64,000 nt of DNA from Candidatus Eiseniibacteriota bacterium (GTDB lineage Bacteria > Eisenbacteria > RBG-16-71-46 > CAIMUX01), in the NCBI GenBank assembly GCA_903844735.1, contig CAIMUX010000080.1:18820-82819 (forward strand), read 5' to 3'. Shown in pieces: positions 37,367 to 64,000 of this stretch; the stretch's first letter is position 1, and each line of letters opens with the position of its first letter. Under the pieces are notes generated by a model. It made no database searches, was not told the DNA's origin, and saw only the letters and a program-made list of their open reading frames with translations. The position numbers and the translations under genes were made by a program.

Positions 37367-37377
37367 CGTGAACCGGG

Positions 37378-42367: not shown

Positions 42368-42373
42368 TTCGAG

Positions 42374-42403
42374 TTGACCTTCCATCTGGGGTGATGCTAG
42401 CGT
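42374..42403 (+). promoter_or_regulatory. Putative parAB promoter
   Basis: TTGACC-18 bp-TAGCGT with TG at the extended -10 position. Confidence 0.4.
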
Positions 42404-42519
42404 CCGGGAGGGCGCGGATGAATCGGCGGGTGGCGGCAAGCGGGGTGGGCCCGACCGCGCGACGTACAGCGGCGGAACCCGATGGAGAACATGGAGTTCT
42501 GGGGAGGGTGAGTCGCACG

Positions 42520-43281
42520 ATGGGGCGTGTCATTGCGATAGCGAATCAGAAGGGTGGCGTCGGGAAGACCACGACCGTCGTGAATCTGGGCGCCTCTATC
42601 GCGAAGAGCGGCCTCCGGGTGCTCCTGCTGGATCTGGACCCGCAGTCCAACGCCACCTCAGGCGTTGGTGTCTCGGGGGTCAGCCCCGATGATTCGACCT
42701 ACCCAATTCTGGTCATGGGTCACCCCGTGGCGCCGATCATTCGGCGGACATCGTGCGAGCGGCTCGATTTGGCTCCAGCTACCCCGGAGTTGGCGGCGGC
42801 GGAGCTGGAGTTGGTGGACCAAGAGGGCCGGGAGCTTCATCTCCGCAGTGCCCTGGAACATGTTCGCAACGAATACGACTATGTCCTGATCGACTGTCCC
42901 CCGTCGCTCGGCCTGCTGACCATAAATGCTCTGGTGGCAGCAGATTCGGTCTTGATTCCGCTGCAGTGTGAGTACTACGCGCTGGAAGGACTGGGCCACC
43001 TCATGGACACGGTTCGGCGAGTGCGGGAGCGGCTGAACCCCTGCCTCGATGTGGAGGGCGTTCTCCTGACCATGTTCGATGGCAGACTGAACCTGTCCAT
43101 GCAAGTGGCGGAAGAGGCGCGGCGGCACTTCGGCGGAAAAGTGTATGCCACCATGATACCGAGAAATGTGCGGATCGGAGAGGCGCCCAGCTTCGGCAGG
43201 CCGGTCGTAGCCTATGACCCTGCCTGCGTCGGCGCAGTTAGCTATGAGAACTTGGCAAGGGAGATTCTCGCAAATGGCTAA
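42520..43281 (+). CDS. parA: ParA/Soj partition ATPase
   Basis: NQKGGVGKTT, DLDPQ, IDCPPSLG and QCEYYALEG motifs. Confidence 0.96.
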   Translation: MGRVIAIANQKGGVGKTTTVVNLGASIAKSGLRVLLLDLDPQSNATSGVGVSGVSPDDSTYPILVMGHPVAPIIRRTSCERLDLAPATPELAAAELELVDQEGRELHLRSALEHVRNEYDYVLIDCPPSLGLLTINALVAADSVLIPLQCEYYALEGLGHLMDTVRRVRERLNPCLDVEGVLLTMFDGRLNLSMQVAEEARRHFGGKVYATMIPRNVRIGEAPSFGRPVVAYDPACVGAVSYENLAREILANG

Positions 43282-44146
43282 GAAGGTTTTGGGGAGAGGG
43301 TTGGACGTGCTGATCCCGAGGGCCACGTCGGGGGCGGAGCCGCGTCGAGGCGACGTCGTCCAAAGCGTGCCCACCGCGAAGGTTCGCCCGAACCCCCGAC
43401 AACCGCGCCGGCAATTTAATGACGAACGATTGGCCGAGCTGGCCCATTCGATCCGGGAGAAGGGGATTATCGAGCCGCTCATCGTCCGGCAAGCGGAGGG
43501 TGACGAGTTCGAGCTCATTGCCGGGGAGCGACGTCTGCGCGCGGCACAATTGGCCGGACTCGAAGAGGTTCCAGTGCTGCTTCGGAGGTCGGCAGATCGA
43601 GAGAGCCTGGAGATCGCCCTAATCGAGAACCTCCAACGCGAGGACCTCAATCCGGTCGATGAAGCGCGGGCCTATCTCCGCTTATCCGAGGAGTTCGGGC
43701 GGACCCATGCCGAGATTTCCCAGGAGGTTGGCAAGGACCGCACGACCGTCACGAATTTGCTACGGATACTGCGACTGCCCCAGGGCGTGCTGAGCGACGT
43801 TTCACGTGGAACGTTGTCTGTTGGGCACGCGCGGGTTCTTCTCGGTGTGGAAGATCCGGGGCGCCAGGCGGATCTGGCCCGGCGCATGGTTGCGGAGGGC
43901 TGGAATGTCCGCCAGGCCGAGCGTTTTGTTTCTCAGATCAACAGGCCTGCGAAAACCCGGGGCAGCAAGTCGGGCACCCCAAGCCGGGGCGGGGATGTGG
44001 TTCGGATTGAAAAGGCGCTTCGGTATGCATTGGGAGCGGAGGTCCACCTCGACCACGGGGTGAGCGGCGGACGGATCGAAATCCGTTACGAGAGCGACGA
44101 AGAGCTAGAGCGGATTCTGGAAGTGCTTGGGATACAGATTCACTGA
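43274..44146 (+). CDS. parB: ParB/Spo0J partition protein
   Basis: LGRGL, IAGERRLRA, ENLQREDL and HTH motifs. Confidence 0.96.
   Translation: MAKKVLGRGLDVLIPRATSGAEPRRGDVVQSVPTAKVRPNPRQPRRQFNDERLAELAHSIREKGIIEPLIVRQAEGDEFELIAGERRLRAAQLAGLEEVPVLLRRSADRESLEIALIENLQREDLNPVDEARAYLRLSEEFGRTHAEISQEVGKDRTTVTNLLRILRLPQGVLSDVSRGTLSVGHARVLLGVEDPGRQADLARRMVAEGWNVRQAERFVSQINRPAKTRGSKSGTPSRGGDVVRIEKALRYALGAEVHLDHGVSGGRIEIRYESDEELERILEVLGIQIH
43798..43813. promoter_or_regulatory. parS site inside parB
   Basis: CGTTTCACGTGGAACG. Confidence 0.8.
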
Positions 44147-45567: not shown

Positions 45568-45624
45568 CAATGCGGGCTCGGTGCTCGGGGGGTGTGGTTA
45601 GTTTCCAAGAGGGGGTCAGATCCG

Positions 45625-47448
45625 ATGCGGCGGCTGTTTTTCGTCCTATTTGTCCTAGCCTCTCCTCTCCTCTGGAGCTGCTCCGAGAACGATACGCCGG
45701 CGGTTGTGGACCAGAGCGAGCCCGAGGTTCGCATCTGCTACCCCTATGACTCGGAGCCGACGACCTTCGTCGTTAACGATTCGATCAATGTCTACTTTGC
45801 TGCCCATGATCTGGGCCCGAACGGCCGCCAGGCTGAGCCGGCGAAGGTTGAGCTCTGGTTCTCCCGTCCCGGTACTCTCTCCGATACCACCGACCGCGTG
45901 TTGATCGGGATAGCGGGTAGGCCCATTTCCATCGACCAGGTGCCGGAGATGGACTCCAACCGGGTGGACTCCGTCCGGGCGATTGTCGAGCGCTCCCTGC
46001 CCGCGGGGTGGAGCTTGTACACGCGACCGTGGTTTACTGGGCCGACGCCTCTACCACCGATCGGCACACCGATCAACACGGGCACAGATGTGCAACTCTT
46101 TGCTGTCGCGTACGACGCGGCTGAAAATGTCGGGCGGACACCCGGTGTCGTTCGGGTTCACGTGACCAATTTCGGGGACGACATTGGACCACCCACGCCA
46201 CGCTTCACAGTCAACCCGCAATCGGGATCGACCGCCACCACGTTCGTCTTTGACGCATCCACGTCTACGGACCGGATCGACCGCGAGACCCACAAGATCA
46301 GTGTGAGATGGGATTTCGATGGTAATCCTGCGAACGGCTGGGACATCCCCTGGACCGCGAATGCCCGCGCCGACGAGAAGCAGAGTTGGCAGTATGCGGT
46401 GCCACGCACCTACCGCGCGACCCTGCAGGCCCACAATTCGTACCTCCCTGGCTCGGACAGCACGGTGACCCGCGACATCCTCGTGACATCGCTCGGGGGC
46501 TCTCCGCGACCGCCGGAGGAGAGCAACTACTGTGACATCCCCGCCGGAACCTATGTGATTGGTGACTCGATCTACGTTTCGGACGGCCAGACGTATCAGA
46601 CCGATGCCGTCGAGCGGCCGGTCCACGAGGTCGCATTCACCTCGACCTATCGGATCGAGAAGACGGAAGTCACAAACCGGCTCTATCTGGACTATCTACG
46701 TGCGGAACTGTATCCCGATACGGCGTCGATTGAGTACCGTGAAGGCGAGCGCCTCGTCTACTCATGGGATCCCGCGCACCCCGATGCACCGCGCGTGGTT
46801 TATTTTGACCCCAGCCTCTCCGAAATTTACTACAGCCTGGACAGCCGGACCTTCGCCATCAGGCAGGGTTACGAGGATCATCCGGTCACCGGCGTGACTT
46901 GGTTTGGCGCCAGCGCCTACGCCTTGGCGTACGGGTTGCGTCTGCCTACCGAGGCGGAGTGGGAGGTCGCGGCGCGTGGCGCCAACGGGGCCTGGAGCTA
47001 TCCGTTTGTTGGCGGGACAGAGCTGACCCTGGCCGCGGGGCCATACCGGGTGAACTATTTCGGGAGTCGAAACGGGACCGATCCGTTCATCGGCGGCACG
47101 GGGCCCACGACGCCGCGGGGTTTCTACAACGGACAGGTCTACGAAGGTTTCCAGACCCTGGACACGCCGAGCGCATTCGGGACATACGACATGGCCGGCA
47201 ATGTCGCTGAATGGGTGGGCGATTGGCTCCCAGCCTCGCCTCCTTTCTATCCCGAGTATCTTGACTCCGATCCGCAGGGGGCGTCGTCGGGGACGCATCG
47301 AGTGGTTCGGGGAGGCAGCTACCTGTCCAGCCGCGCCGGAGTGCGTTGCACGGCCCGCAAGGGTTCGCTGCCCACGGAGTGCTTTGCATCTGTCGGGTTT
47401 CGGACTGCGTACATCCGCCCCGTGGCCGCGCCTCCGCTCGGGCGGTAG
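45625..47448 (+). CDS. Lipoprotein with Ig/PKD domains and a C-terminal FGE-sulfatase (SUMF1-like) domain
   Basis: Lipobox LWSC; WDFDG (PKD); TEVTN, RLPTEAEWE, DMAGNVAEW, RGGS and GFR motifs. Confidence 0.88.
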   Translation: MRRLFFVLFVLASPLLWSCSENDTPAVVDQSEPEVRICYPYDSEPTTFVVNDSINVYFAAHDLGPNGRQAEPAKVELWFSRPGTLSDTTDRVLIGIAGRPISIDQVPEMDSNRVDSVRAIVERSLPAGWSLYTRPWFTGPTPLPPIGTPINTGTDVQLFAVAYDAAENVGRTPGVVRVHVTNFGDDIGPPTPRFTVNPQSGSTATTFVFDASTSTDRIDRETHKISVRWDFDGNPANGWDIPWTANARADEKQSWQYAVPRTYRATLQAHNSYLPGSDSTVTRDILVTSLGGSPRPPEESNYCDIPAGTYVIGDSIYVSDGQTYQTDAVERPVHEVAFTSTYRIEKTEVTNRLYLDYLRAELYPDTASIEYREGERLVYSWDPAHPDAPRVVYFDPSLSEIYYSLDSRTFAIRQGYEDHPVTGVTWFGASAYALAYGLRLPTEAEWEVAARGANGAWSYPFVGGTELTLAAGPYRVNYFGSRNGTDPFIGGTGPTTPRGFYNGQVYEGFQTLDTPSAFGTYDMAGNVAEWVGDWLPASPPFYPEYLDSDPQGASSGTHRVVRGGSYLSSRAGVRCTARKGSLPTECFASVGFRTAYIRPVAAPPLGR

Positions 47449-50546: not shown

Positions 50547-51797
50547 GTGACAGACCGATCGAATTTCCGCCGACAGGCGCCCGTCCGAGCGGTAGATCCT
50601 CCCCGCCTGTTCCTGCTCTTCGCCGTCCATCTCGTCTTGGCCGCGGTCGCGGTGTCGGCCAGACCTGCAAGCGCGCAGGGCTCCGCCCTGGTCGGAATCC
50701 CGGACTCGTCCGCGGTCGAGGCTCAGAACCTCCGGGCGATTGACACCCCGAACGATCGCGGCGAGAGCGTGAACCTCTCGTGGGAGCCGGCCGCGATAGA
50801 AGCGAAGGATCCCGCGGCGGTCTTTGGCTACGTCATCGAGCGTGCTGAGTCCACGGACGGGCCGTTCCGTGAAGTGGGGCGCGTTGTCGCCGGGACCCGG
50901 GAATTCGTCGAAGCCGACAGCCTCCGGGACGGGGTTGCCTACTTCTACCGGGTGCGCACCGAGCGGCCCGGCGGGGTCCTGAGCGGCGTGGCTGCGATCG
51001 CCGGGCCGGTGATCTCGAAGGGACAGCTCTTCGACAAGCGCAAGACGGTCACCTGCATCGCCACCGTCCTGTTCTGCCTCACTGTCGTCTGGCTGATCCA
51101 GCACGCGCGTCGGGGCAAGGCGATGTATATCCGACCGATCCCCGGGCTCTCGGCCGTGGACGAGGCGATAGGGCGCGCTACCGAGATGGGGCGGCCCATA
51201 CTCTTCGTCCCCGGGCTCGGGGGCTCCAGTGACGTCGCCACGCTGGCAGCCTTCACGCTTCTGGGGCGGGTCGGGCTCAAGACCGCCGAGTACCAGTCGT
51301 CGCTCATTGTTCCCTGCTACGACCCGATCGTCATGACCATCGCCCAGGAAATCGTGAAGTCGTCCTACCTGGGTGCGGGACGTCCGGAGATGTACCGGCA
51401 GGACGACGTCTTCTTTGTTACCCAGGACCAGTTCAGTTACACCGCGGCGGTCAACGGCATCATGTTGCGCGAGCGTCCGGCCACGAACTTCTACATCGGA
51501 AAGTTCTATGCCGAGAGCCTGGTGCTGGCCGAGACAGGCAACCTCGCCGGGTCGATCCAGATTGCGGGGACCGACGAGATCACCCAGATCCCTTTCTTCG
51601 TGGCAGCGTGCGACTACACCCTCATCGGCGAGGAGCTGTATGCGTCGAGCGCCTATCTTTCGCAGGAGCCACCGCTGCTCGGGACCCTCAAGGCCCAAGA
51701 CTACGCCAAAGCTGTGACGGTACTCGTGTTGATCCTCGGGGTCATTGCGGCACTTCTACACCATGACTGGTTCGTCAAACTGTTCCTCGTCGAGTAG
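50547..51797 (+). CDS. Cassette 1 gene A: signal peptide + FN3-like domain + TM + DUF6754-like domain
   Basis: AAGGAG RBS before GTG; LSWE...YFYRVRT (FN3); IRPIPGLSAVDEAIGRATEMG...LIGEELYA. Confidence 0.8.
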   Translation: MTDRSNFRRQAPVRAVDPPRLFLLFAVHLVLAAVAVSARPASAQGSALVGIPDSSAVEAQNLRAIDTPNDRGESVNLSWEPAAIEAKDPAAVFGYVIERAESTDGPFREVGRVVAGTREFVEADSLRDGVAYFYRVRTERPGGVLSGVAAIAGPVISKGQLFDKRKTVTCIATVLFCLTVVWLIQHARRGKAMYIRPIPGLSAVDEAIGRATEMGRPILFVPGLGGSSDVATLAAFTLLGRVGLKTAEYQSSLIVPCYDPIVMTIAQEIVKSSYLGAGRPEMYRQDDVFFVTQDQFSYTAAVNGIMLRERPATNFYIGKFYAESLVLAETGNLAGSIQIAGTDEITQIPFFVAACDYTLIGEELYASSAYLSQEPPLLGTLKAQDYAKAVTVLVLILGVIAALLHHDWFVKLFLVE

Positions 51798-51806
51798 GGA
51801 GAAAGC

Positions 51807-52421
51807 ATGCAGCGATTGCTGCCCCGCATCATCACCTTCGTCTGTGGGATGTTCCTGGCCATCCAGTACTTCATTCCGCACAAGAGCTCTGAGAAGGTCT
51901 ACGAGACATCCATCGACTGGTTGATCATCGTGGGCGTCTTCGCCATCGTGCTTGGGATCCTCAGCCTGGTGACCGTCAACCTGGAGAAGATCCGGCGAAA
52001 GAGCGCGGGGTATCGGCACGCCTGGGTTCTCCTGGCCGGCCTGGTCTTTATGGTCGTGGCCGGGATCGTGACCGGGACGGGGCAGGACGGCCTCTTCCTG
52101 CGACTGGGGTATAACGCGATCCTAAACCCGATCACCGCGACGATGTTCGCGTTGCTGGCGTTCTACATCGCCTCGGCGGCGTACCGGGCTTTCCGCGCCC
52201 GCTCCGTCCTGGCCACCATTCTGCTGCTCTCGGCGATCATCGTGATGCTCGGGCGGGTGCCCGCGGGCGAGGTGATCCCGGGAATCCCGTGGCTGACCGA
52301 CTGGTTGATCAACGTTCCGAACATGGCAGCCAAGCGGGCGATCACCATCGGCCTCGGCCTGGGCGGGAGCGCGACGGCGCTCAAGATCGTGCTGGGCATC
52401 GAAGCCCCGCACCTTCGCTAG
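51807..52421 (+). CDS. Cassette 1 gene B: uncharacterised polytopic membrane protein
   Basis: About six hydrophobic segments; TMFALLAFYIASAAYRAFR; paralog at 62729. Confidence 0.8.
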   Translation: MQRLLPRIITFVCGMFLAIQYFIPHKSSEKVYETSIDWLIIVGVFAIVLGILSLVTVNLEKIRRKSAGYRHAWVLLAGLVFMVVAGIVTGTGQDGLFLRLGYNAILNPITATMFALLAFYIASAAYRAFRARSVLATILLLSAIIVMLGRVPAGEVIPGIPWLTDWLINVPNMAAKRAITIGLGLGGSATALKIVLGIEAPHLR

Positions 52422-52430
52422 GAGGATGCC

Positions 52431-53258
52431 GTGGCCCGCTTCAATATTCTCGAGCTCGACCGGCGCTTCATCTTCCTGATGATCTTTCTGTCGGTTCTGA
52501 CGCCGCTCTTCTTGCCGGCACCGAAGACTGTCAAGGTCTCTCCCGAGGTCAAGAAGGTCTACGACCGGATCGAGGCGCTCCCGGCCGGGTGCATCGTCAT
52601 GCTCGCCTGCGAGTACGACCCGTCGATGAGTGCGGAGATGTCGCCAGTGAACATGGTGGTGCTCCGGCAGTGCTTTCGCAAAAACCTCAGGGTGCTCACC
52701 ACCTGTCTGATGTCCAACGGGGTCTCCCTGGTGGAGAGCGAGATCAACCTTGTGGCTGCTGAGTACGACAAGAAGAACGGGGTCGACTATGTCTACCTCG
52801 GCTACAAGCCCTATCCAGCCGCGATCATCCTCGCCATGGGAGAGGATTTCCGGCTGGCCTTCCCCAGCGATTTCTACAACACTCGCCTCGACGACATCCC
52901 CATGATGAAGGGCGTGAAGAACTACCAGGACGTCTCGTTGGTCCTCGCCATCACCTCCACCAGCGGCATCGACTATTGGATCACTTACGGACAGGGTAGG
53001 TATCGCTTCCCTCTGGCGGCCGCCGCGAGCGCGGTGATGGCGCCCAATTACTACAACTACCTTGACTCGGGACAGCTCTTCGGACTCATCGGAGGCCTGC
53101 GCGGGGCGGCCGAGTATGAGCAACTGGCAAAGAAACCGGCCGCGGCCACCAAAGGCATGTTGGTGCAGTCGGTATCCCACTTGTTGATCGTCGGATTGAT
53201 CGTTCTCGGCAACGTCTCGTTCTTCGTCGCTCGCCGCCGCCGCCGCGGCCAGGAGTAG
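52431..53258 (+). CDS. Cassette 1 gene C: uncharacterised protein with two TM anchors and a soluble alpha/beta domain
   Basis: DRR+TM, YDP, GQLFGLIGGLRGAAEYE, C-terminal TM followed by RRRRR; paralog at 63359. Confidence 0.8.
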   Translation: MARFNILELDRRFIFLMIFLSVLTPLFLPAPKTVKVSPEVKKVYDRIEALPAGCIVMLACEYDPSMSAEMSPVNMVVLRQCFRKNLRVLTTCLMSNGVSLVESEINLVAAEYDKKNGVDYVYLGYKPYPAAIILAMGEDFRLAFPSDFYNTRLDDIPMMKGVKNYQDVSLVLAITSTSGIDYWITYGQGRYRFPLAAAASAVMAPNYYNYLDSGQLFGLIGGLRGAAEYEQLAKKPAAATKGMLVQSVSHLLIVGLIVLGNVSFFVARRRRRGQE

Positions 53259-53260
53259 TC

Positions 53261-53932
53261 ATGGATCCCGTCGAGATGCTCCTCCGCACGCTGGCCGTCT
53301 TCTTCACCATGGCCATCTTCTCCTTCCTCTGGAAGGACAACATGATCTACAAGTTCGCGGAGCACCTCGTAGTGGGGATCTCCATGGGGTACTGGTGTGT
53401 GATCCTCTACCAGACATCGTTCCTCTCCAAGATGTGGGGGCCGTTGACGCGGACGCTGGCCGGGCACCCCGAAGGGATGCCCGACCGACTCGTCTTTGTG
53501 CCGATCGCGCTGGGGCTCCTGCTATTCACTCGGTTCTTCCCGAAAATCTCGTGGCTGGCGCGCATCCCGATGGCGTTCATTCTCGGCGTAGGCTCTGGGG
53601 TGGCAATTCCTTTGGGGATCCAGGCCTCGGTGATCCAACAGATCCATCCCACGATGGCGGCGTTCCAACCGGCAACCTGGACCGGCGTCGGCTCGTGGTT
53701 CAACGCAATTCTGGTGCTGATGGGCGTGGTCTGCGGGCTAGCCTACTTCTTCTTCTCGGCGAAGCACACCGGGATCCTGGGCGGGATGTCGAAGATAGGG
53801 ATCTGGGTGCTCATGATCGGGTTCGGCGCCAGCTTCGGGTACACCGTGATGAGCAGGATCAGCCTGCTCTATGGCCGGGTGAACTACCTGGTGTTCGAGT
53901 GGGCAGGGCCGCTGGTGAGGGGACTGTTCTAG
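53261..53932 (+). CDS. Cassette 1 gene D: uncharacterised polytopic membrane protein
   Basis: SFLWKDN..YKFAEH and LMIGFGASFGYTVMSR motifs; starts 2 bp after the gene C stop. Confidence 0.8.
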   Translation: MDPVEMLLRTLAVFFTMAIFSFLWKDNMIYKFAEHLVVGISMGYWCVILYQTSFLSKMWGPLTRTLAGHPEGMPDRLVFVPIALGLLLFTRFFPKISWLARIPMAFILGVGSGVAIPLGIQASVIQQIHPTMAAFQPATWTGVGSWFNAILVLMGVVCGLAYFFFSAKHTGILGGMSKIGIWVLMIGFGASFGYTVMSRISLLYGRVNYLVFEWAGPLVRGLF

Positions 53933-53940
53933 CCGACCAT

Positions 53941-54714
53941 TCAACCCTTTCGGCTCACCACTGTCGCACCGGCCTGGCAGGTCGGCATCAGCACCATTTC
54001 CGCGACATTCATGTGGGCCGGACGGGTGATGGCGTAGACGACGGCATCCGCGACGTCATCTGGGGTCAATGGTGTGAGCCCCAGATAGACGCTCTTTGCC
54101 CTGGATTCGTCACCGTGGAACCGGACAAGGGAGAACTCGGTCTCCACCATGCCGGGGTCGACGGTCGTAACGCGAATTTCGGTGCCGTTCAAGTCGAGGA
54201 GCATCCCTTTTGAGATCGCCCGCTCCGCGAACTTTGATGCGCAGTAGACACTCCCTCCGGGGTACACCTCGCGGCCCGCGACGGAGCCGATGTTCACGAC
54301 ATGCCCGCGGTTTCGCACCACCATGCCGGGGATGACGGCACGGCTCACATAGAGCAGTCCCTTCACGTTCGTGTCGAGCATCTCCTCCCAGTCTTGGAGC
54401 AGTCCCTCGTGGAACTTGTTAAGTCCACGGGAGAGACCGGCGTTGTTGACGAGGATGTCGATGGCCGCCCACTCCGGCGGCAAGGCACGCACCATCGCCT
54501 CTACGTCCGGCTGCCTGCGGACATCGAGGGAAGAGGTCAGCACATCGAGGCCATGGGCGGCGCGGATCTCTTCGGCGAGAACGTCGACGCGGTCCAGGCG
54601 CCGAGCGGCGAGGAGGAGGCGGGCCCCTTCGACGGCGAGCGCGCGGGCGATGGAGCGGCCGATGCCGCTGCTGGCTCCGGTGACGAATGCCGTGCGGCCG
54701 TCGAGACGCTTCAT
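53941..54714 (-). CDS. Classical SDR oxidoreductase (YdfG-like)
   Basis: TGASSGIG, NNAG, YCASK and PGMVETEFS motifs. Confidence 0.9.
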   Translation of the reverse strand: MKRLDGRTAFVTGASSGIGRSIARALAVEGARLLLAARRLDRVDVLAEEIRAAHGLDVLTSSLDVRRQPDVEAMVRALPPEWAAIDILVNNAGLSRGLNKFHEGLLQDWEEMLDTNVKGLLYVSRAVIPGMVVRNRGHVVNIGSVAGREVYPGGSVYCASKFAERAISKGMLLDLNGTEIRVTTVDPGMVETEFSLVRFHGDESRAKSVYLGLTPLTPDDVADAVVYAITRPAHMNVAEMVLMPTCQAGATVVSRKG

Positions 54715-54816
54715 GAACGGAACTCCTGTCTTTGGCGCCGTCAGATCCCGGCGGAGAGTGCGACGCGAGGCTGTCTGCTTCGTGATGGTTCCTGTCAGTC
54801 GTGGCGGATCCGGCGA

Positions 54817-56361
54817 TCAAGGCGGGTCGAGCGGTCCGCGGGCGCGAGCCCGGCCATCCAGCAGGGTGAAGGGGAGAACATCCTGACGCCGCTGCCGATC
54901 CTCAGAAGCAAGGACGTCCAGCAACGAGCGCTGATCCCACGTTTCTCGCAATCCACGCGTGACATCGAAGACCAGCGTGTCGACCGTGGCCGCGGCGCTG
55001 GCGGCATGGGCGTCGAGCGGAGTGCCGACCCGACCGCCCCGAGCTGGACTGCCGGAGGCGGGGCCGCCAACCGAGGAACCGGAGGAAGCGGCGGCGTGGC
55101 TCCCACCGGGATCACGGCCTCCAGCGGCCATGCCGCCGGGCGGTCCCGTGAGGCTGGCGTAGACATCGAACACGCTGATCTTTTCCGGGTTGCGTGCCGG
55201 GACCAGGATCATCTCGCGGCGACCGGTGGCGACCTGGTGAAGCACACCGCCGTCGACCAGTGTTTCGGCCACGGTGCGCACGAGGCGCAGCGGTAGTCTC
55301 AGCCGGCGCGCCAGGTTGGTCAGCTCCGGCGGGTCGAGCTCATCGCGGTAGCAGCGAACGGCCTCGAGCGCGACATGCATGCCGGCACGGAAGCGCTCCT
55401 CCAGTCCTGCCTTGGCGGCGCCGACCTCCAGCCGGAAATCCTGCGCCGCCTCGCGGGCGAACGCGAGCTGCGCGCCAAAGAGTACCACCAGCCAACTGAC
55501 ATAAACCCAGATGAGAAAAAACGGGACCGCAGCCAGGGCGCCGTAAAGGGTGCCATAGTGAACAGCGGTGCGCATGTAGGCGCCATACCCGAGCTTCAGG
55601 ATCTCCCAGAGCGTGCCCGCCACCAACCCGGCGGGCAGTGAGGCGCGCAGGCTAACCCGCACATTGGGCAGAATCGTGTATACCAGCGTGAAAGCGATGC
55701 CGGTGAGGAGCGCGGGCGCCAGTTGAAAGACGACGCCGAGGAGTGTCTCGAATCCGGTCGGGAAGGAAGCCAGCCAGTTCTGGAGCGCGAGAGTCTCGAG
55801 GCTGGCGGTGGCCGAGAGCGAGAGGCCGATGAGGATGGGCCCGAACACCACCAGGGTGGTGTAGATGGAAAACCGCTGGAAGAGCGAACGGCCGCGGTGT
55901 ACCCCCCAGATGTCGTTGAATGCCTGTTCCAGCGAGCCGAGCAGCCCGACGACAGCTCCGGCGAGCACCAGGATGGAGACCTCCCGGAAGGCCCCTCGAT
56001 CGGCCGCCGCGAAGAAGGACCGCAGCCACTCCTGCACTTGGCCCTGACTCCCCGGGGCCAAATTGACGACCAGGAAGTCCTCGACCTGCTGCCGCAGTCC
56101 TTCAAGGGCACCAAAGGCACGGAAGACCGAGAGAGCCAGGACGAGGACCGGCCCCAGGGTGAGGAGCGTCGTGAAGGTCATGGCCGAGGCGCGCAACTGG
56201 ATGCGTCCACGCGCCAGGCCGGTGGCGAAGATCACCGTCACTCGGAGCTGCCGGAAGGCCCATCGTTGCAGTCGCGAGACCGCCAAGATGTCGGGCTCCC
56301 AGATGCGGTGACGCAGGAGGTCGGTCGCATGTCTGCGCCAAGTGTGGATTCGTGCGTTCAT
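54817..56361 (-). CDS. YihY/BrkB family membrane protein with a C-terminal winged-helix (Rrf2-like) domain
   Basis: ASAMTFTTLL, EQAFNDIW and YGALAAVPFFLIWVY motifs; C-terminal PARNPEKISVFDV. Confidence 0.87.
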   Translation of the reverse strand: MNARIHTWRRHATDLLRHRIWEPDILAVSRLQRWAFRQLRVTVIFATGLARGRIQLRASAMTFTTLLTLGPVLVLALSVFRAFGALEGLRQQVEDFLVVNLAPGSQGQVQEWLRSFFAAADRGAFREVSILVLAGAVVGLLGSLEQAFNDIWGVHRGRSLFQRFSIYTTLVVFGPILIGLSLSATASLETLALQNWLASFPTGFETLLGVVFQLAPALLTGIAFTLVYTILPNVRVSLRASLPAGLVAGTLWEILKLGYGAYMRTAVHYGTLYGALAAVPFFLIWVYVSWLVVLFGAQLAFAREAAQDFRLEVGAAKAGLEERFRAGMHVALEAVRCYRDELDPPELTNLARRLRLPLRLVRTVAETLVDGGVLHQVATGRREMILVPARNPEKISVFDVYASLTGPPGGMAAGGRDPGGSHAAASSGSSVGGPASGSPARGGRVGTPLDAHAASAAATVDTLVFDVTRGLRETWDQRSLLDVLASEDRQRRQDVLPFTLLDGRARARGPLDPP

Positions 56362-56484
56362 GAAGCCGCGATTCTAGCCGAAAGCCGAGCGCCGGGTCGA
56401 GCAGGGATGACGGGCGCGCGGGCAAGCCACACGGGAAGGGGCGGGTGGCGCCTCGTCGCCCGGCCCACAGCTCGGCGTCCTCCA

Positions 56485-56560
56485 GCCCGACGCCCGACGC
56501 CCGAAGTCCGAAGCCCGAAGTCCGAAGCCGGTCTTATTCCTTCCAAGCTCCGAACCTCAG
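56485..56560 (-). repeat. CTGAG-family heptamer-repeat element (partial copy)
   Basis: GCCCGAC x2 and GCCCGAA/GTCCGAA x4, ending in CTCCGAACCTCAG (reverse complement CTGAGGTTCGGAG). Confidence 0.7.
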
Positions 56561-56625
56561 GCCTCTTTGCGGTCCTTGCACCAACGCGATCCTCCCGTAG
56601 AATCTCGACAGGAGGTGTGCCGCCC

Positions 56626-58566
56626 ATGAGACGACTCTTTGCAACCACGGTCATCGTGATGGCCCTGGCCGGCTGTGGCGGTGACAAGCCGCTCATCAAG
56701 TTCGTCAACACGCCGCCGGAAGCGGCGCTCACTGCCGACCCGGACACCCTGGCCTTGGCAGACAGCTCGATTGTCACCTGCCTGGTCGGCGATCCCGACT
56801 CGGATGTCCTTACGTTTCGTTGGAGTGCCAGCGCCGGGCGCTTCATCCGGCGCGATCCGTCGATGTCACAGGTTTCCTGGATCGCCCCGGCCGTGGAAGG
56901 CGTGGACACCATCCGCGTCACGGTTTTCGACAACACCGACTCGGTCGAGGCTGTGGTGTGTGTGACGGTGGTCGGGCACACCGGCACGGTCCTCGGCGTC
57001 GTGAAAGATGGGACATCCGGAGAGGGCCTGGCCGGCGCGCGGCTCGAGATCGCCGGGCGAGTCGGAACCTCGGGCATCAAGGGCTTCTTCCGTCTCGAGC
57101 TTGTGCCGCCGGGTGTCGACACCCTCCATGCCACACGAGATGGGTACGAGCCATATGCCCAGCTCCTGCCCGTGCGGGAGGGAACGAACGAACTGGAAAT
57201 TCCGCTGCAGCGGGCCGCGCCCAGGGCGCGCCTTTTCGGCGAGGTGACCAATGGCCACGGTCAGGCCGTGGCCGGCGCCGTCTGCGGCGTGGGGGAGGAC
57301 GAAGTATCTACCGACGCCACGGGACAGTATGACTTTGCCGGGGTGCCGGTGGGTCTTCGGGTGCTGCGGGTTCGGGCTGATGGATTCTACCCGTTTCAGG
57401 ACACTGTGGATGTCCAGCAGCCGGAAGTCCGATTCGACATCGTCCTGCACGCGGCGCCGCCTGCTCCCCCCGAGGGACAGCTCACGGTGACGAAGCTTGC
57501 CGACTATCGGCTGCGGGTAAGCTGGGTCCCGCAAAATCCGTCCGCGGCGATCGCCGGCTTCAACCTCATCATGATTGCGAGCGGCGAGAGCCAGGGGTTG
57601 CCGGAGCCAGTTCCCGGCGGGCCGCTTCTTCGAAGCGGCGGCACTCGAGAGGTGATAGGAGCCGAGGACGGCCGGTACCGGTTCGCCGTGGCCGCCGTGA
57701 GGAGCGACGGGGTGGTGGGGGCGGCCACGCCTTACACCCCGATCGCCGTGCTCACACAGCCGAGCTCTCTGGTAAACGTGCCGGCGGGGCCGGTGATCAT
57801 GGGTTCCTATCCCGGTGACTATGGCAGCGAGGTGCATCCGGGAAACCCGATTCAGGTCCAGGCCTTCGCCATCGAAGCGCGTGAGGTGACCAATCGCCAG
57901 GTCGTGGCTTTCCTTGTAGAAGCGCTGGCGCAAGGCCTCGTGCAGGTAGGCGACCTCGCGGTGCGGGCCGGTGCGGATACGCTGCTCTTCTTCTCGGGGA
58001 GCCAGGTTGACCGCGACCCGCTCAACGACGGTTTCTCCGTGCCTCCGGGGTTGAAGGACTACCCGGTGACGGGCATCACCTGGTTCGGCGCCGACGCTTA
58101 TGCTCGCTGGTATGGGCGGCGGCTGCCGAAGGAATCTGAGTGGGAGAAGGCGGCACGCGGCACAGCCGATTCCACCGGTATCTACCCAGGGACCACGGTT
58201 GGCGTGGGAACGATGTATCCGTGGGGCAGGGCGCTGCCGTCCGTGGAGCGCGCCAACTGCCAAAGCCTCTTCGGTGGAAAGCGACCGGTCGGCTCTTTCC
58301 CTGACGGCGCGGCGCTGTGGTGGGGCACGCCGGTCTATGACCTCGCGGGGAATGTCTGGGAGTGGTGTGACGACTGGTTTGCGGCGTACGCCAACCCGCA
58401 CCAGCCTCCGGCAATCGGGTCGCGCAGAGTGGTGCGCGGCGGCGCCTGGGATGGCTCGGACGCGGAGATCCGGGTCGGCCACCGGTGGTTTGTCGCGCCC
58501 GCGCTGAAAAGCACCAAGATCGGTTTTCGGTGCGCTGCGGACCCGGCGAAGGATGCGCCGGGCTAG
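56626..58566 (+). CDS. Lipoprotein with Ig/carboxypeptidase-regulatory-like/FN3 domains and an FGE-sulfatase (SUMF1-like) domain
   Basis: GGAGG RBS; lipobox LAGC; EVTN, RLPKESEWEKAARG, DLAGNVWEW, RGGAW and GFRC motifs. Confidence 0.88.
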   Translation: MRRLFATTVIVMALAGCGGDKPLIKFVNTPPEAALTADPDTLALADSSIVTCLVGDPDSDVLTFRWSASAGRFIRRDPSMSQVSWIAPAVEGVDTIRVTVFDNTDSVEAVVCVTVVGHTGTVLGVVKDGTSGEGLAGARLEIAGRVGTSGIKGFFRLELVPPGVDTLHATRDGYEPYAQLLPVREGTNELEIPLQRAAPRARLFGEVTNGHGQAVAGAVCGVGEDEVSTDATGQYDFAGVPVGLRVLRVRADGFYPFQDTVDVQQPEVRFDIVLHAAPPAPPEGQLTVTKLADYRLRVSWVPQNPSAAIAGFNLIMIASGESQGLPEPVPGGPLLRSGGTREVIGAEDGRYRFAVAAVRSDGVVGAATPYTPIAVLTQPSSLVNVPAGPVIMGSYPGDYGSEVHPGNPIQVQAFAIEAREVTNRQVVAFLVEALAQGLVQVGDLAVRAGADTLLFFSGSQVDRDPLNDGFSVPPGLKDYPVTGITWFGADAYARWYGRRLPKESEWEKAARGTADSTGIYPGTTVGVGTMYPWGRALPSVERANCQSLFGGKRPVGSFPDGAALWWGTPVYDLAGNVWEWCDDWFAAYANPHQPPAIGSRRVVRGGAWDGSDAEIRVGHRWFVAPALKSTKIGFRCAADPAKDAPG

Positions 58567-59032
58567 GAAAGCGAGCGGATTCGATGTCGGAGCAGAGCGC
58601 CTGTGAATCATGCGGGTTTGGCCGCGCAGCGAATCGAAGGAGAAAAGTGTGAGGGTCCGGGGCTCCGGCGTTTGACTCAGTCGCGCGAAGCGGATGCTGA
58701 CCTCGGGGGCGGCGCCTTTCGATGTGTGCCCTGCTGCGTATCCCAGCCTGCCCCAGTGGAGGTGTCGATACCACGGACCCTCAGCTCGACCGAACGCGGA
58801 GCATTTGTCTCTCGCGTTCAGTCCCTAGATCGGTTCGGGCTGGGCATCACTTGAGCCTCCCGTGCGATGAAAACGAAGAGGATCCCGAGTGGCGAACGAA
58901 AGAAGCCGGGCTTGCGGTGAACGGCAGTGCATCGTGCGTGCGGGTCGTGCTGCATGCACGAAGGGTGGCTGCGCGCCGTCAGCCCGGAGTGGCGGATTCG
59001 GAGTCGTAGCAGAGCGGAAGGAACAATGCGGG

Positions 59033-59719
59033 TCAGCCCGCCACCGTCCCCCCGAGGTGCCGCCGCATCGTGGCCAGCGCCAGGGAGAGGTGCTTCTCCA
59101 ACCCGTCGATTGGCTCATCCGCGGGCTCGAAGATGACGAAGAGAAGCCCGGTGGTCGCTTCGGTAACTCTCGTGCGGGCGGAATCGGCCGAAGGGTTGCC
59201 GAAAGGACCGAGGCGGTCAAGGAGCGCGGGGCGTCCCTCTAGGTGGATCATCTCCTTGCCGATGCCGGGGTATTCCTCGGTCGCCGTCCCCAGCCGTAGA
59301 GTGACCACCGAGACGCCTGGATCGGGACGACCGTTCGCTTCGCTCGCGTCCACCGGGTGGACCTTGTCCGCGTCGTAGAGCCCCACCGGTCGCAGAATCG
59401 ACATCGAGGCCAGGTTCGCCGCGTCGACCGCTGTGTTAACGCGCGCGAGTCCCTTCCCCTGAAGGACACGCCGGACCAGCGCCTCCGATGAGGGACGCAC
59501 TTTGGAGGGGTCGAGCCCACAGGCGTGATACATCCGCCGTGCAGCGGAGAAGGCCGGCAAGGCCGCGGCCGGGTCCGGGTAGTGCGCCATCAACTCGCCG
59601 CCGCGGGTGGACAGCTCTTGCTGCAAGGCGTCCGATTTCGGGCGAACGGTCACACCCTGAAGCGCGAACCAGGTGGGGTGGATGCGGTCGGCCAACAGGT
59701 TCCGGATGATCCAGTGCAC
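59033..59719 (-). CDS. B3/B4-domain protein (stand-alone PheRS-beta-like editing domain)
   Basis: DPSKVRPSSEAL, VNTAVDAAN, GLYDAD and GPFGNPSADS motifs; AAGGAGG RBS before GTG. Confidence 0.87.
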   Translation of the reverse strand: MHWIIRNLLADRIHPTWFALQGVTVRPKSDALQQELSTRGGELMAHYPDPAAALPAFSAARRMYHACGLDPSKVRPSSEALVRRVLQGKGLARVNTAVDAANLASMSILRPVGLYDADKVHPVDASEANGRPDPGVSVVTLRLGTATEEYPGIGKEMIHLEGRPALLDRLGPFGNPSADSARTRVTEATTGLLFVIFEPADEPIDGLEKHLSLALATMRRHLGGTVAG

Positions 59720-59899
59720 GGGGCCTCCTTGGACGGGACGGTAGGATCTGACCTGGGTAGTTGTACGACCTTCCGCCGCCGTGGTCAACCCGCCAAGTCA
59801 ACCCAGCGAGAACTCCGGGCGCGCCGGCGGATGTCTCTCCCCACGGCGAGGACGGCCCGCCCACCGGCGGGGGGTATCTCCTTGCTGCAGACCACGCAT

Positions 59900-60019
59900 C
59901 TGAGATTCAGAGGCTTCGGACTTCAACTCTCGGCCACCAGAAACGGCTTGACGCTCTCCGGCCCGAAGCCCGAGGCCTGAAGCCCGATGCCAGTCAAATT
60001 CGTTCCCTCCGAATCTCAG
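59900..60019. mobile_element. 120-bp MITE-like element with CTGAGATTC(A/G)GAGG terminal inverted repeats
   Basis: 59900-59913 and 60006-60019 are inverted repeats with one mismatch; internal heptamers; homologous to 6025-6123. Confidence 0.7.
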
Positions 60020-60120
60020 CACGCGCACAAGCGGTGGTATCTCCGAGCCTGACCCGCTACGATGGGGCGTTCGCCGCAAAAACCGCGGCCGACGGTCGTT
60101 GGCAGATGCAGTGAAGGCAG

Positions 60121-60915
60121 ATGAACACTCTTACCGCCCAGAATCTCCACTGGTTTCTCTTCTCCGGGGCGGCCGCCGGCTTCTTCGGCTCGATTCTGGG
60201 CGTGGGCGGCGGGATCATTCTTGTCCCTCTTCTGGTGCTCGTTTTTCATATCCCGATGCACTTTGCGATCGGGACCAGCATCATGACGGTCATCGCTACG
60301 TCGAGCATGGCCGGGACGTTCAACCTGGAACGCGGTACCGTGAACATTCGGCTCGGGATGGTCCTCGAGGTGGCGACCGCCATCGGCGCGCTCTTCGGCG
60401 GGACGCTCGCCGGGCTCGTCCGGGGAGACGTCCTAACTGTGGTCTTCGGAGGCATACTCCCGCCCATCGCCTGGCTGATGTGGCGAAAAGGGAACGAACG
60501 GCGTCCGGCTGGACCGATCTCGGAAACCGACTACCAGATGCGCCGCCTGCCATTAGCGATGGGGATGTCGCTGGGCGCAGGGACGGTCTCCGGACTTCTT
60601 GGCATTGGTGGCGGGATCATCAAGGTTCCGGTCATGACAGTCTTTTGCGGCATTCCGGCGAAGATCGCCACGGCTACTTCGACGTTCATGATCGGTGTGA
60701 CCGCGGTGGCGAGCGCCTTCCTCTATTTCGGACGCGGGCAGGTTCGGCCCGCCATGACGGCAGTGGTGGTGTTGGGCGTGCTGGGGGGCAGCGCCACCGG
60801 CACCCAGGTGGCGAAGCGACTCCACAGCAACCATCTCATCAGGCTCTTCGCGGTTCTGTTGAGCCTTGCGGCGGTACAGATGGTGTATCGCGGCATCAAG
60901 GGGTTGACCCATTGA
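60121..60915 (+). CDS. TauE/SafE sulfite exporter family
   Basis: Two GxxGxGGG repeats, AIGTS and ATATS motifs. Confidence 0.9.
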   Translation: MNTLTAQNLHWFLFSGAAAGFFGSILGVGGGIILVPLLVLVFHIPMHFAIGTSIMTVIATSSMAGTFNLERGTVNIRLGMVLEVATAIGALFGGTLAGLVRGDVLTVVFGGILPPIAWLMWRKGNERRPAGPISETDYQMRRLPLAMGMSLGAGTVSGLLGIGGGIIKVPVMTVFCGIPAKIATATSTFMIGVTAVASAFLYFGRGQVRPAMTAVVVLGVLGGSATGTQVAKRLHSNHLIRLFAVLLSLAAVQMVYRGIKGLTH

Positions 60916-61307
60916 TGGAGAAGAAGAGCCTCCTCGACAGGATCTATCGCGAAGTCGACGCCCGGGCCAGCCAGGGAGACCACGCCGAGAAGCCGGCCCG
61001 CCGAGCCCTACTCACCGGGGTCTTCTTGAGTGCCGCGATGCTTGCGGTGGGTCTATGGATCGTGTGGATCCGGCAAGAGGCGCGGCCCAACGAGCCACCG
61101 GCGCTGTCGGAGATCACGCGCGGGCTTCAGCAGGGGCGCGGCACCTCTCTTCTCTACGCAGGTCTGCTGTTTCTCGCGGCCACGCCGATCCTGCGGGTGG
61201 TGGTGATGGTGGGCGTGTATCTCCGTCGCCGCGAACTCTTCATGGCTGCGGTCTCGATCATCGTTCTCGGGCTGCTGGCGGTCGGCGTGCTGATGGGGTC
61301 CGGGTGA
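60915..61307 (+). CDS. DUF1634-like membrane protein
   Basis: TGATG overlap with tauE; GLLFLAATPILRV motif; the usual partner of TauE genes. Confidence 0.8.
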   Translation: MEKKSLLDRIYREVDARASQGDHAEKPARRALLTGVFLSAAMLAVGLWIVWIRQEARPNEPPALSEITRGLQQGRGTSLLYAGLLFLAATPILRVVVMVGVYLRRRELFMAAVSIIVLGLLAVGVLMGSG

Positions 61308-61464
61308 GGGCGGCTCGACCGGCGGCTTGGTTGGCGGCGCCATTGGCAGATCGGTTCGTTGCCAGATGCGCTGTTTCGCGGGTATCCTATGTGGGGCCGG
61401 CGCGCCAGCGGGCGACGCGGGGACCGGGAGAAACGGCGGGAAGGTCACGACCGGGGGGGGGCCG

Positions 61465-62691
61465 ATGGGGGAGATAGTTGCGACGCTGACCGCCCGTCGT
61501 TCGTTCGTAGGTTCGCTCTGCTTTCTCGCAGTGCTGTCTCTGTTCCTCCTGCCGGCATCGGCCTGGGCTGTGGAGCCGGCCTTGGACCTCACCGTGAAGG
61601 ACAAGCCACTCGACGCGGGCGAGGTGCTCAAGATCGCATTCAGCCGCGCGTCCGGTGATTCCCTCGGCCGCACGGGGATCGTCCGTTACGAGCTGCTGCG
61701 GCAAGCCCCGGGCGAGGCGGTCTTCAAGGTTGCTCGCTCCTTTGCCGCCAGCCAGAGGCTCGGCCGGTTCACGTACGACGACACCGGGCTCAAGCCAGGG
61801 AAGCACTACCAGTACAAGGTCCGCACCGTCGGCGCTGATGGCTTTACCGCCGAAACCGCCCCCTGCCCACCCACAGCGCCGCGGCGGCAATGGTTCTTCA
61901 CCAACAAGCTCAATACCCTTGTGGCCACGGCGATCTTCTGCGCCTTTGTTCTCGGCTTCATCCACGCGGCACGCCGGGGGCGGCCGATGTTCATTCGCCG
62001 CATCGCCGGACTTGACGCCATCGACGAGGCGGTCGGCCGCTGCACCGAAATGGGCAAGCCGACGCTGTATGTTCCGGGTATCAGCACGATATCGGACGTG
62101 GCCACCATTGCCAGCCTGAACATTCTCGGGCAGGTGGCGAAGAAGATAGCCCAGTACCAGACTCGCATTCTCGTGCCCAATCGGGACCCCATCGTCTTCC
62201 CGGTGGCCCAGGACGTGGTGAAGGAAGCGTTCATCGAGGCCGGCTATCCCCACAACTACCGAAGTGATGACGTTTACTTTGTCACCAACGATCAGTTCGC
62301 CTACGCTGCCGCCGTCTGCGGCACCATGGTGCGCGAGAAGCCCGGGGCCAACCTCTTCCTCGGCATGTTCTACGCCGAATCGCTGGTGCTGGCGGAGACC
62401 GGCGCCTCGGTGGGGGCGATTCAGATCGCCGGCACCGACGCCATCTCGCAGTTGCCGTTCTTCGTGACCGCTTGCGACTACACCATCATCGGTGAGGAGC
62501 TCTACGCAGCCAGCGCCTACATCGGGCGTGAGCCGACGCTGTTGGGCACACTCAAGGGGCAGGACCTTTTCAAGATGGTCTGCCTCGGGGTCATCTGCCT
62601 GGGGGTTCTCCTCATGACACTCGGGGTGATTTTCCGGGGCAAGCCCTACGACGACATCCTTCAGCTCATCACCGTAAGGTCCGGGTCATGA
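61465..62691 (+). CDS. Cassette 2 gene A: signal peptide + FN3-like + TM + DUF6754-like domain
   Basis: Paralog of 50547: IRRIAGLDAIDEAVGRCTEMG...IIGEELYA. Confidence 0.8.
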   Translation: MGEIVATLTARRSFVGSLCFLAVLSLFLLPASAWAVEPALDLTVKDKPLDAGEVLKIAFSRASGDSLGRTGIVRYELLRQAPGEAVFKVARSFAASQRLGRFTYDDTGLKPGKHYQYKVRTVGADGFTAETAPCPPTAPRRQWFFTNKLNTLVATAIFCAFVLGFIHAARRGRPMFIRRIAGLDAIDEAVGRCTEMGKPTLYVPGISTISDVATIASLNILGQVAKKIAQYQTRILVPNRDPIVFPVAQDVVKEAFIEAGYPHNYRSDDVYFVTNDQFAYAAAVCGTMVREKPGANLFLGMFYAESLVLAETGASVGAIQIAGTDAISQLPFFVTACDYTIIGEELYAASAYIGREPTLLGTLKGQDLFKMVCLGVICLGVLLMTLGVIFRGKPYDDILQLITVRSGS

Positions 62692-62732
62692 CGGCGCGGC
62701 CGCAGTTCATCACCGAGAGGTCCGGGTCATGA
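62662..62732 (+). repeat. 30-bp direct repeat at the gene A/B junction
   Basis: 62662-62691 vs 62703-62732 differ at three positions. Confidence 0.8.
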
Positions 62733-63355
62733 AGACGCAGATCCCGCTCCTCATCTGCCTGGTGGCCGGGCTCTTCATGGGCTTGCAGTACTTCATCCCG
62801 GCGGCGTTGCCGGTCTACAACCGCGTGAACGACTACATCCAGGTGGTGACGGCGTTCTCGCTGGTGCTCGGGGTGGTCAACCTCATCCACCGACACATCG
62901 GGCGCATGCGGCCGAGCGGCCCACAGCGGCGGCGGCACAGGGACTGGCCATTTAGTCTCGCGGCGCTCGTCGGTCTGGTTGTCATGCTGTTTGCGGGGTT
63001 CGGGACCCAGCGCGGACCGATCTTCCAGTCGCTCTTCAACTCGATCCTCCTGCCGGTCCAATCGACGATGTTTGCGCTTCTGGCCTTCTACCTCGCGTCC
63101 GCGGCGTTCCGCGCCTTCCGCGTGCGCAGCGTGGACGCGGTGGTGCTGCTGGTGTCGGCGGTTGTGGTGATGGTTGGACGACTCGACGATGGCGGCGCCC
63201 TCGGGATTCCCTGGCTGTCACGGCAGATCCTCAACGGCCCGAACCTGGTGGCCAAGCGCGCCATCATCCTCGGGGTCGGACTCGGGATGGCCGCGACCGC
63301 TCTCAAGGTGGTGCTGGGGCTGGAACGGTCCTACCTCGGGTCGGGAAAGGAGTAG
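62729..63355 (+). CDS. Cassette 2 gene B membrane protein
   Basis: TMFALLAFYLASAAFRAFR and PNLVAKRAI motifs; paralog of 51807. Confidence 0.8.
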   Translation: MKTQIPLLICLVAGLFMGLQYFIPAALPVYNRVNDYIQVVTAFSLVLGVVNLIHRHIGRMRPSGPQRRRHRDWPFSLAALVGLVVMLFAGFGTQRGPIFQSLFNSILLPVQSTMFALLAFYLASAAFRAFRVRSVDAVVLLVSAVVVMVGRLDDGGALGIPWLSRQILNGPNLVAKRAIILGVGLGMAATALKVVLGLERSYLGSGKE

Positions 63356-63358
63356 GCC

Positions 63359-64000
63359 GTGACAACCGTTGACCTGCTCCAGAGGTTACTGGTCCTGGAC
63401 CGGAGAATCATCTACGCCCTGCTCCTGGTCTGCGCGGTGGTGCCGTTCTACATGAACTGGCCGCCGATCAAGATGGAGGTCTCGAAAGAGACCCAGGACG
63501 CCTACGACGCCATCGACGCCATTCCGCCCGACGGGAACCCGCTGGTGCTCTCCTTCGACTACGACCCGGCCTCCGCGGCGGAGCTGACGCCGATGGCCGA
63601 AGCTGTGCTCCGGCACTGCTTCGCCAAGAAGATCCGCGTGCTCGGGATCAGCCTGCAGTACAGCGGCCAGGGAGCCGGGATCGCCGCGGAGGTGATGCCG
63701 CGGATCGCGCGCGAGTTCGGCCGCGAGCAGAATGTCGACTGGGCGTTCATGGGCTTCCAGCCGAATGCCGTGGTCGCCATGCTCCAGATGGGCGAAGACT
63801 TCAAGAAGACGTTTCCGACCGACTACTACGGCACGGCCGTCGACAAGATAGCGCTCATGGAGAACATCCAGAACTACGACCAGGTGCCGGCCGTGCTCAC
63901 GCTGGCCGGGACCGCCGTGGCCGAGAGCTGGGTGACCTATCCCGGCATGCGCTACGGCGTGACGATCCTGACCGGCCTGACCGCCGTCTATGTCGCCGAC
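63359..64000 (+). CDS. Cassette 2 gene C, 3'-truncated by the window edge (not in the ORF track)
   Basis: AAGGAG RBS and GTG start; LDRRIIY...FDYDP...LRHCF...MGEDF, open to the window end; paralog of 52431. Confidence 0.8.
   Translation, partial: MTTVDLLQRLLVLDRRIIYALLLVCAVVPFYMNWPPIKMEVSKETQDAYDAIDAIPPDGNPLVLSFDYDPASAAELTPMAEAVLRHCFAKKIRVLGISLQYSGQGAGIAAEVMPRIAREFGREQNVDWAFMGFQPNAVVAMLQMGEDFKKTFPTDYYGTAVDKIALMENIQNYDQVPAVLTLAGTAVAESWVTYPGMRYGVTILTGLTAVYVAD

Follow-up and report, generated by a model that had tools for sequence, protein, structure and literature searches.

Positions 50547-53932 of a 64,000-nucleotide stretch of the genome of a Candidatus Eiseniibacteriota bacterium (assembly GCA_903844735.1, contig CAIMUX010000080.1; the whole stretch is called the window below) hold four consecutive genes for membrane proteins, which we call A, B, C and D. 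An earlier note on this DNA had described them as a tightly spaced set of which a second copy, in the same order, starts at 61465. Both descriptions are borne out: every open reading frame (ORF) is where it was placed, the gaps in the first cassette are small (9 bp for A1-B1, 9 bp for B1-C1 and 2 bp for C1-D1; A2 and B2 are 37 bp apart), and the genome sequence past position 64000 gives the rest of C2 and an intact D2 (Table 1). The motifs that the note quoted as shared are present in both window copies, whose core identities are 56% for A, 46% for B, 36% for C and 40% for D. The statement that the cassette is present twice is right for the window but not for the genome (96% complete), where five complete A-B-C-D sets were located by tblastn: contig C80, that of the window, has two, and contigs C5, C49 and C104 have one each. 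The cassette occurs almost only in genomes that also carry a further pair of genes, E and F, and A-D and E-F are therefore likely to make up one new kind of ATP-driven membrane machine.

The four-gene cassette and its subunits

Do A, B, C and D belong together? Their synteny is conserved well beyond this genome: among the A genes with at least 3.2 kb of sequence downstream, 132 of 137 are followed by B, C and D in that order, the five exceptions being three loci where a second A or an A fragment comes first, one with the order B-D-C and one where none follows. Natural fusions join C to D in five proteins, B to C in one and A to B in one (the last probably artefactual, from a frameshift); three B proteins contain an inserted C-like domain. 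Four of the five C-D fusions have an extra transmembrane (TM) helix linking the halves; this fits the predicted topology, because passing from C, which ends inside, to D, which starts outside, requires one.

Of 142 cassettes found, 137 remained after removal of 5 near-duplicates; in their trees, which are not independently rooted and whose clades were not tested, the host's five copies fall into five separate clades, each closest to cassettes from other lineages or phyla. Window copy 1 clusters with its own orthologues and next with cassettes of Ignavibacteria and Zixibacteria; copy 2 clusters with those of Coatesbacteria and Zixibacteria. Among the five copies, any two A proteins share 50-58% identity, and the range for B, C and D is 32-46%. 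The window pair is therefore not a local duplication; to judge from the trees, it is a case of ancient paralogy or of separate acquisition. The earlier description of an old duplication thus stands as to age but fails as to kinship, the two window copies not being sisters.

Patristic distances of the four subunits correlate at 0.72-0.83 over the 137 cassettes. When multi-copy loci are compared, B, C and D agree with A in their choice of partner in 822-867 of 980 cases (446 expected; the comparisons share ancestry). These figures indicate, as far as sequence comparison goes, that cassettes evolve as units, and the four subunits presumably assemble physically. Gene order, the C-D and B-C fusions, cassette-wise co-divergence and the lack of any family, solved relative or paper found for it (see below) support the view in the note that this is an undescribed, conserved multi-subunit membrane system.

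A1 and A2 match the Pfam family DUF6754 (PF20539) with E values of 9e-118 and 3.5e-117 (392.5 and 390.5 bits against a curated cut-off of 27 bits), covering model positions 2-257 and 2-250, respectively, so the DUF6754-like label first given to A is confirmed by the profile. The FN3 part of that label is weak: A1 has no fn3 match and that of A2 (E=0.02) is below cut-off. The layout of A comprises a signal peptide-like N-terminus, an FN3-like outer segment, a TM helix with a K/R cluster directly behind it, the Rossmann-like DUF6754 domain (predicted cytoplasmic) and a C-terminal TM helix. The outer segment is dispensable, the C104 copy being 261 aa long without it, and complete A proteins (188 ORFs) span 252-1012 residues. 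A is the most conserved subunit, with 27 invariant columns in 108 rows, many of the invariant residues being charged.

B, C and D are not recognised over cut-off by any Pfam or NCBIfam model, and one-by-one scans of 102 B, 146 C and 100 D relatives likewise gave no family over cut-off. Their topology was derived from conservation, hydrophobicity and the positive-inside pattern. B has about six TM helices, a predicted N-in orientation and a long conserved helix with the end ASAxxRAFRAR. D also has about six, with a predicted N-out orientation and invariant Glu34 and Arg199, and in both proteins conserved Arg residues lie toward the predicted outer side. C, whose relatives number 5390 cluster representatives at E<=0.001, has a TM anchor, a Rossmann-like domain (predicted periplasmic) with a conserved acidic motif behind its first strand, a GAAEYE motif, and a C-terminal TM helix carrying an invariant His and Asn. 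Large unrelated domains are tolerated at the N-terminus of A, in one B loop (after TM3), in one D loop and at two sites in C; the outer domains inserted in relatives include WD40, FG-GAP, PQQ propeller, HEAT and CARDB. Subunit B is found in the cultured planctomycetes Planctomicrobium, Thalassoroseus and Rubinisphaera. The B proteins P0345, P0368 and P0385, from cultured planctomycetes, have an insertion of about 400 residues in a predicted outer loop, without a Pfam match.

AlphaFold2 gave a confident model for a natural C-D fusion (predicted local distance difference test [pLDDT] 86.7, predicted template modelling score [pTM] 0.85) and a weaker one for an A-B fusion (pLDDT 70.7, pTM 0.47; residues 194-236 below pLDDT 50), the latter being based on a single fusion that probably arose by a frameshift, with A represented by 11 rows. 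In the models, the soluble domains of A and C are both Rossmann-like and have the same order of secondary-structure elements. Foldseek searches of the PDB with both models returned nothing at E<=0.001, the hits being dominated by soluble domains and the TM parts barely probed. Wider fold searches with the C-D model, including a viral library, and with the A-B model gave only tied Rossmann-type rows with Z scores of 7-9. Sequence searches of solved structures with A, B, C, D and E profiles found nothing at a useful E value, and in the ESM Atlas C occurred only in unnamed clusters and D had no usable named match. Complex prediction of B, C and D scored 0.71 with A as the partner and 0.65 in a control in which C was replaced.

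Partner genes, distribution and surroundings

E (about 605 aa, PF13941, a GlmL-like actin-fold protein) and F (about 375 aa) are the cassette's top recurrent neighbours, and in 23 of 157 loci one or the other is no more than 6 kb from A. In 20 loci picked for a view of the operon structure, the usual arrangement is (gcvT-H-PA-PB)-H-G-E-F-A-B-C-D; in alternative layouts E-F follows A-B-C-D or is convergent with D-C-B-A, and the linkage of E-F to the cassette therefore survives rearrangement. H (two predicted TM helices) and G (about 120 aa), two small unnamed genes present in many of these operons, are likely to be further components of the system.

The two gene sets are also inherited together. 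In the host phylum 90 of 101 genomes have both A and F, one has A only and ten have neither, with losses across five families (two of the A matches are partial). A Planctomycetota-centred set of 201 genomes contains 52 with both, three with A only, two with F only and 144 with neither; here 54 of the 55 genomes with A also have D, which is absent elsewhere in the set, and 53 of the 55, plus two other genomes, have E. In a third phylum (n=264) the counts are 39 with both, one with A only and 224 with neither, one sub-cut-off A match not being counted. Over the three phyla, A and F thus occur together in 181 genomes and singly in seven, and are both missing from 378 (n=566; the genomes are mostly metagenome-assembled genomes [MAGs]). 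The pattern is repeated in three phyla in which presence is patchy, and hand-picked A carriers from other lineages have F in ten cases out of ten. F is single-copy in most carriers and A has 1-9 copies.

The match of E to PF13941 has an E value of 3e-129, and in 13 of 13 rows the protein retains three actin-fold nucleotide motifs, which we take to be phosphate-1, phosphate-2 and adenosine; it is predicted to hydrolyse ATP. The earlier remark that there is no ATPase holds within the cassette, but the genome encodes the co-inherited actin-fold E-F pair at another place. E also has weak Hydantoinase_A matches. The matches of F are weak as well and are to barrel-sandwich (RnfC_N, NqrA_N), RraA-like, KOW and RNA polymerase beta' hybrid domains (E 0.05-0.4 in one search).

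PF20539 occurs in 91 of the 101 host-phylum genomes (90 over cut-off), with 1-9 copies each, and was not found in any of 14 well-known genomes used as controls; no A relatives were found in viral contigs. Loci were fetched from Eisenbacteria, Zixibacteria, Ignavibacteria, Cloacimonadota, WOR-3, Planctomycetota, Fermentibacteria, Coatesbacteria and Latescibacterota, the nearest named relatives being those in Ca. Eisenbacteria. Cassettes often come as tandem pairs or triples, and most carriers in the Planctomycetota-centred set have a single A copy.

Besides its intact E-F the host has a divergent E-F fusion, adjoined by an OPT transporter gene that is not kept in the other loci read. Contig C119 carries remnants of a second F gene, broken and interrupted; one of them has 87% identity to the intact copy on C121. 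Divergent E-F is found in eight host-phylum genomes, all with at least four A copies.

The genes between the window copies (SDR, YihY, an FGE-domain protein, B3/4 and TauE-DUF1634) are not among the commonest cassette neighbours, and two secreted multi-domain proteins flank cassette 1. Elsewhere the window contains a replication-origin region, in which the names ileS, gyrAB and parAB are presumptive, with a GC-skew minimum near 34 kb and dciA immediately after dnaN, a place where recF often lies. A riboswitch was looked for at the window's ABC (ATP-binding cassette) importer and none was found. At loci of Zixibacteria and Ignavibacteria, the genes that follow the tandem cassettes encode pyruvate phosphate dikinase and an unnamed protein that is small and basic.

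Table 1. Coordinates of the cassettes, partner genes and other features (window numbering unless a contig or locus is named)
Feature	Position	Strand	Remarks
A1	50547-51797	+	416 aa; GTG start, GGAG 7 nt ahead
B1	51807-52421	+	204 aa
C1	52431-53258	+	275 aa
D1	53261-53932	+	223 aa
A2	61465-62691	+	408 aa; second-class A paralogue
B2	62729-63355	+	208 aa; 45% to B1 (tblastn)
C2	63359-64000 in window, end at 64201	+	280 aa
D2	64198-64866		beyond window end; intact, 222 aa
gcvTHP-H-G-E-F of host	contig C121, E-F at 660-3730		apart from all five cassettes
Divergent E-F fusion of host	C33:3923-6898		
Fragments of second F	C119:121138-123959		broken, interrupted
G and H	L184 3731-5127, L061 1705-2545		between gcvPB and E in many operons
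Riboswitch, TonB-dependent receptor, propeller-like protein, porin-like ORF	C5:29379-34939 (L002 12380-17940)	minus	directly upstream of C5 cassette
FecCD-type ABC importer	15579-18747	minus	ATPase, binding protein, permease
Replication-origin region	25182-44146		ileS, gyrA, gyrB, dciA, dnaN, dnaA, rnpA, yidC, gidB, parA, parB
Secreted multi-domain proteins	45592-47448, 56323-58566		FGE-sulfatase-like domains
Small basic unnamed protein, with pyruvate phosphate dikinase	L049 9776-10123		also in 17 other loci

Possible functions of the A-D/E-F system

What might such a system do? We propose that A-B-C-D would be one inner-membrane module of about 16 TM helices, and that the cytoplasmic E-F pair, encoded apart, would power it, E being the predicted site of ATP hydrolysis. 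The very conserved cytoplasmic domain of A would be the docking site for E-F, and B and D would form the translocation path, with conserved Arg, Glu, Asn and His in or at the membrane. C would be a tethered periplasmic alpha/beta domain that receives the substrate, and the variable outer domains (FN3-like, PQQ/WD40 propellers, FG-GAP, HEAT, CARDB) may select cargo. Up to nine module copies with swappable outer domains would then give different specificities to one energiser. A model for this one-energiser logic is provided by group II ECF (energy-coupling factor) transporters, in which several modules share ATPases. That the membrane module works with E-F is very probable; that the two together import a solute is a good deal less secure and falls a little short of an even chance. 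More tentatively still, the system may be a new class of primary active transporter with one actin-fold ATPase (E-F), interchangeable four-subunit modules and periplasmic capture domains. With equal reserve, such a class could be added to ABC and P-type importers as a third design, one that would be ancestral in much of the FCB/PVC candidate phyla.

Several observations count against this proposal. The neighbours of the cassettes hold no conserved substrate clue; the recurrent ones are gcvTHP upstream of E-F and, in one lineage, ppdK downstream. The fold gives no pointer to a transporter because both soluble domains have only tied, generic Rossmann-type matches (best Z 9.2, root mean square deviation 3.5 with 140 residues aligned for the C-D model; 9.3, 3.2 and 130 for the A-B model). 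The nearest named relatives of E are GlmL and Or-4, which are annotated as soluble B12 mutase accessories and not as transport ATPases, and the divergent extra E-F fusions and pairs (about 860-1090 aa; also loci L211-L225) have no conserved or membrane neighbours in the loci read. A without F occurs in genomes G084, G160, G163 and G548, and E plus F without A or D in G278, all of them MAGs. Finally, the co-inheritance counts overstate the number of events because kin are not independent.

Other explanations must therefore be weighed. A trans-membrane enzyme system, though improbable, comes first among them: E would activate a substrate with ATP, A would handle it in the cytoplasm, B and D would hand on or flip a lipid-linked intermediate for transfer by C to an envelope polymer or protein. 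ATP-dependent substrate activation is what hydantoinase/oxoprolinase-type relatives carry out, and the weak Hydantoinase_A matches of E point the same way, as do the many invariant charged residues of A, the conserved Arg residues toward the predicted outer side of B and D, and the acidic and GAAEYE motifs of C. Envelope or glycan biosynthesis genes, however, are not recurrent beside the cassettes, and the fold searches give no standout enzyme fold.

The many modules per single E-F pair and the variable outer domains could also belong to a sensing system. Ligands would bind outside, A would switch the E-F pair, and the KOW-like and barrel-sandwich domains of E-F would act on a cytoplasmic target, for example the transcription or translation machinery. 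This agrees with the weak KOW, RraA and RNA polymerase beta' hybrid matches of F, and the tied fold matches of A and C include RCK gating domains. Yet those F matches stand only at the E values given above, regulators are not recurrent near the cassettes, and the twelve conserved TM helices of B and D would seem to exceed what a signal relay needs. We rate sensing slightly below the enzyme system.

E being a relative of GlmL and Or-4, the cassette might instead take up or unload corrinoids (B12), E acting as those proteins do. In the host, the sole cobalamin riboswitch (94.6 bits) heads a receptor block and the C5 cassette on one strand; the propeller-like protein of this block, presumably BtuG-like, has a C-terminal FlgD Ig domain, and the porin-like ORF (592 aa) has no Pfam match. 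The order riboswitch-receptor-propeller-porin-cassette is kept in two more genera of the family (G052, G089). A terminator scan yielded nothing above chance level. Against a corrinoid role, cobalamin riboswitches turned up in only 3 of 42 scanned sources, all of one family and one paralogue class. In three genomes of a sister family, 17-22 kb containing unrelated genes separate the receptor block from the cassette, and the adjacency may therefore be collapsed synteny. The riboswitch is present in 101 of 101 genomes of the phylum, including the ten without A, and a complete FecCD-type ABC importer is already in the window. Such a role is thus doubtful. Exactly one cobalamin riboswitch is found in 97 of the 101 genomes.

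Just as doubtful is a mechanical or scaffolding machine spanning the envelope in the manner of PilM-PilNOP or MreB-MreCD, in which E would be the actin-like cytoplasmic part. An actin-fold E beside membrane subunits with periplasmic extensions of up to about 1000 aa would suit it, but E scores with the GlmL/Or-4 models and not with those for PilM, FtsA or MreB, pilin, secretin and division genes are not recurrent near the cassettes, and the system was not found in 146 of the 201 genomes of the Planctomycetota-centred set.

The secondary transporter suggested in the earlier note, taken as self-contained, driven by ions and built of two inverted homologous halves (A-B and C-D), is very improbable and not supported, because the cassette is co-inherited, near-strictly, with a separate actin-fold E and with F; A and C do share their secondary-structure order in the models, and A and C, like B and D, are predicted on opposite sides, but profile comparison gives best probabilities of only 1-6% for A-C and below 1% for B-D, near those of reversed controls.

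Comparison with known systems

How far is the A-D/E-F system covered by what has been described? A is a full-length member of DUF6754 (PF20539), but that family covers A only and carries no function, and B, C, D, E and F are not catalogued with it. E shares PF13941 and the actin-fold nucleotide motifs with GlmL/MutL and Or-4 (NF040745, NF040744, TIGR01319). It differs from them by scores below all three NCBIfam GlmL/Or-4 cut-offs (235/475, 226/600 and 178/204 bits), by about 120 extra C-terminal residues and by its pairing with F. According to a passage in PMC4682846, which cites work on diol dehydratase, MutL/GlmL is a chaperone that reactivates glutamate mutase. Instead of a mutase, E has gcvTHP, H, G, F and A-D beside it. 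The host genome has no match to the glutamate mutase E subunit (PF06368); it has none to lysine aminomutase alpha (PF09043) either, a search that also gave no match in any control.

The logic of one energiser with several membrane modules is like that of group II ECF and shared-ATPase ABC importers, but E is an actin-fold and not an ABC protein, and A-D have no ABC, EcfT or S-component match over cut-off. No ABC ATPase is among the recurrent neighbours above six loci. One B relative (P0375) carries the source annotation 'ECF transporter S component', which has no support here.

Rnf and Nqr complexes have two six-TM subunits of about 200 residues in opposite orientation, an anchored periplasmic subunit and a cytoplasmic barrel-sandwich subunit. 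B, D, C and F resemble this anatomy, and F has its weak RnfC_N and NqrA_N matches. Comparison with the RnfA/E profile by hhalign, however, gave 0.3% for B and 1.8% for D (reversed controls, 0.1% and 1.0%), and homology of B and D to Rnf/Nqr was rejected for want of signal. PF02508 is weakly matched by 2 of 102 B rows, the Rnf-Nqr family has no match in the host genome, and no Fe-S or flavin motifs were seen. PilM-PilNOP and MreB-MreCD likewise couple an actin-fold protein to inner-membrane proteins, but E belongs to a different fold branch and the polytopic B and D have no counterpart there.

No paper on DUF6754, PF20539 or PF13941 was found in a search of main texts outside subscription journals, and we know of no GlmL-type actin-fold-driven transport or signalling machine. 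Judged by its genes, A-D/E-F appears new as a system, and its mechanism would be new whichever of the above explanations holds. The large non-clostridial part of PF13941 would gain a role other than mutase reactivation, and the six-gene system, found in 90% of the genomes of one phylum and scattered through many others, would combine one ATPase-like unit with up to nine membrane modules.

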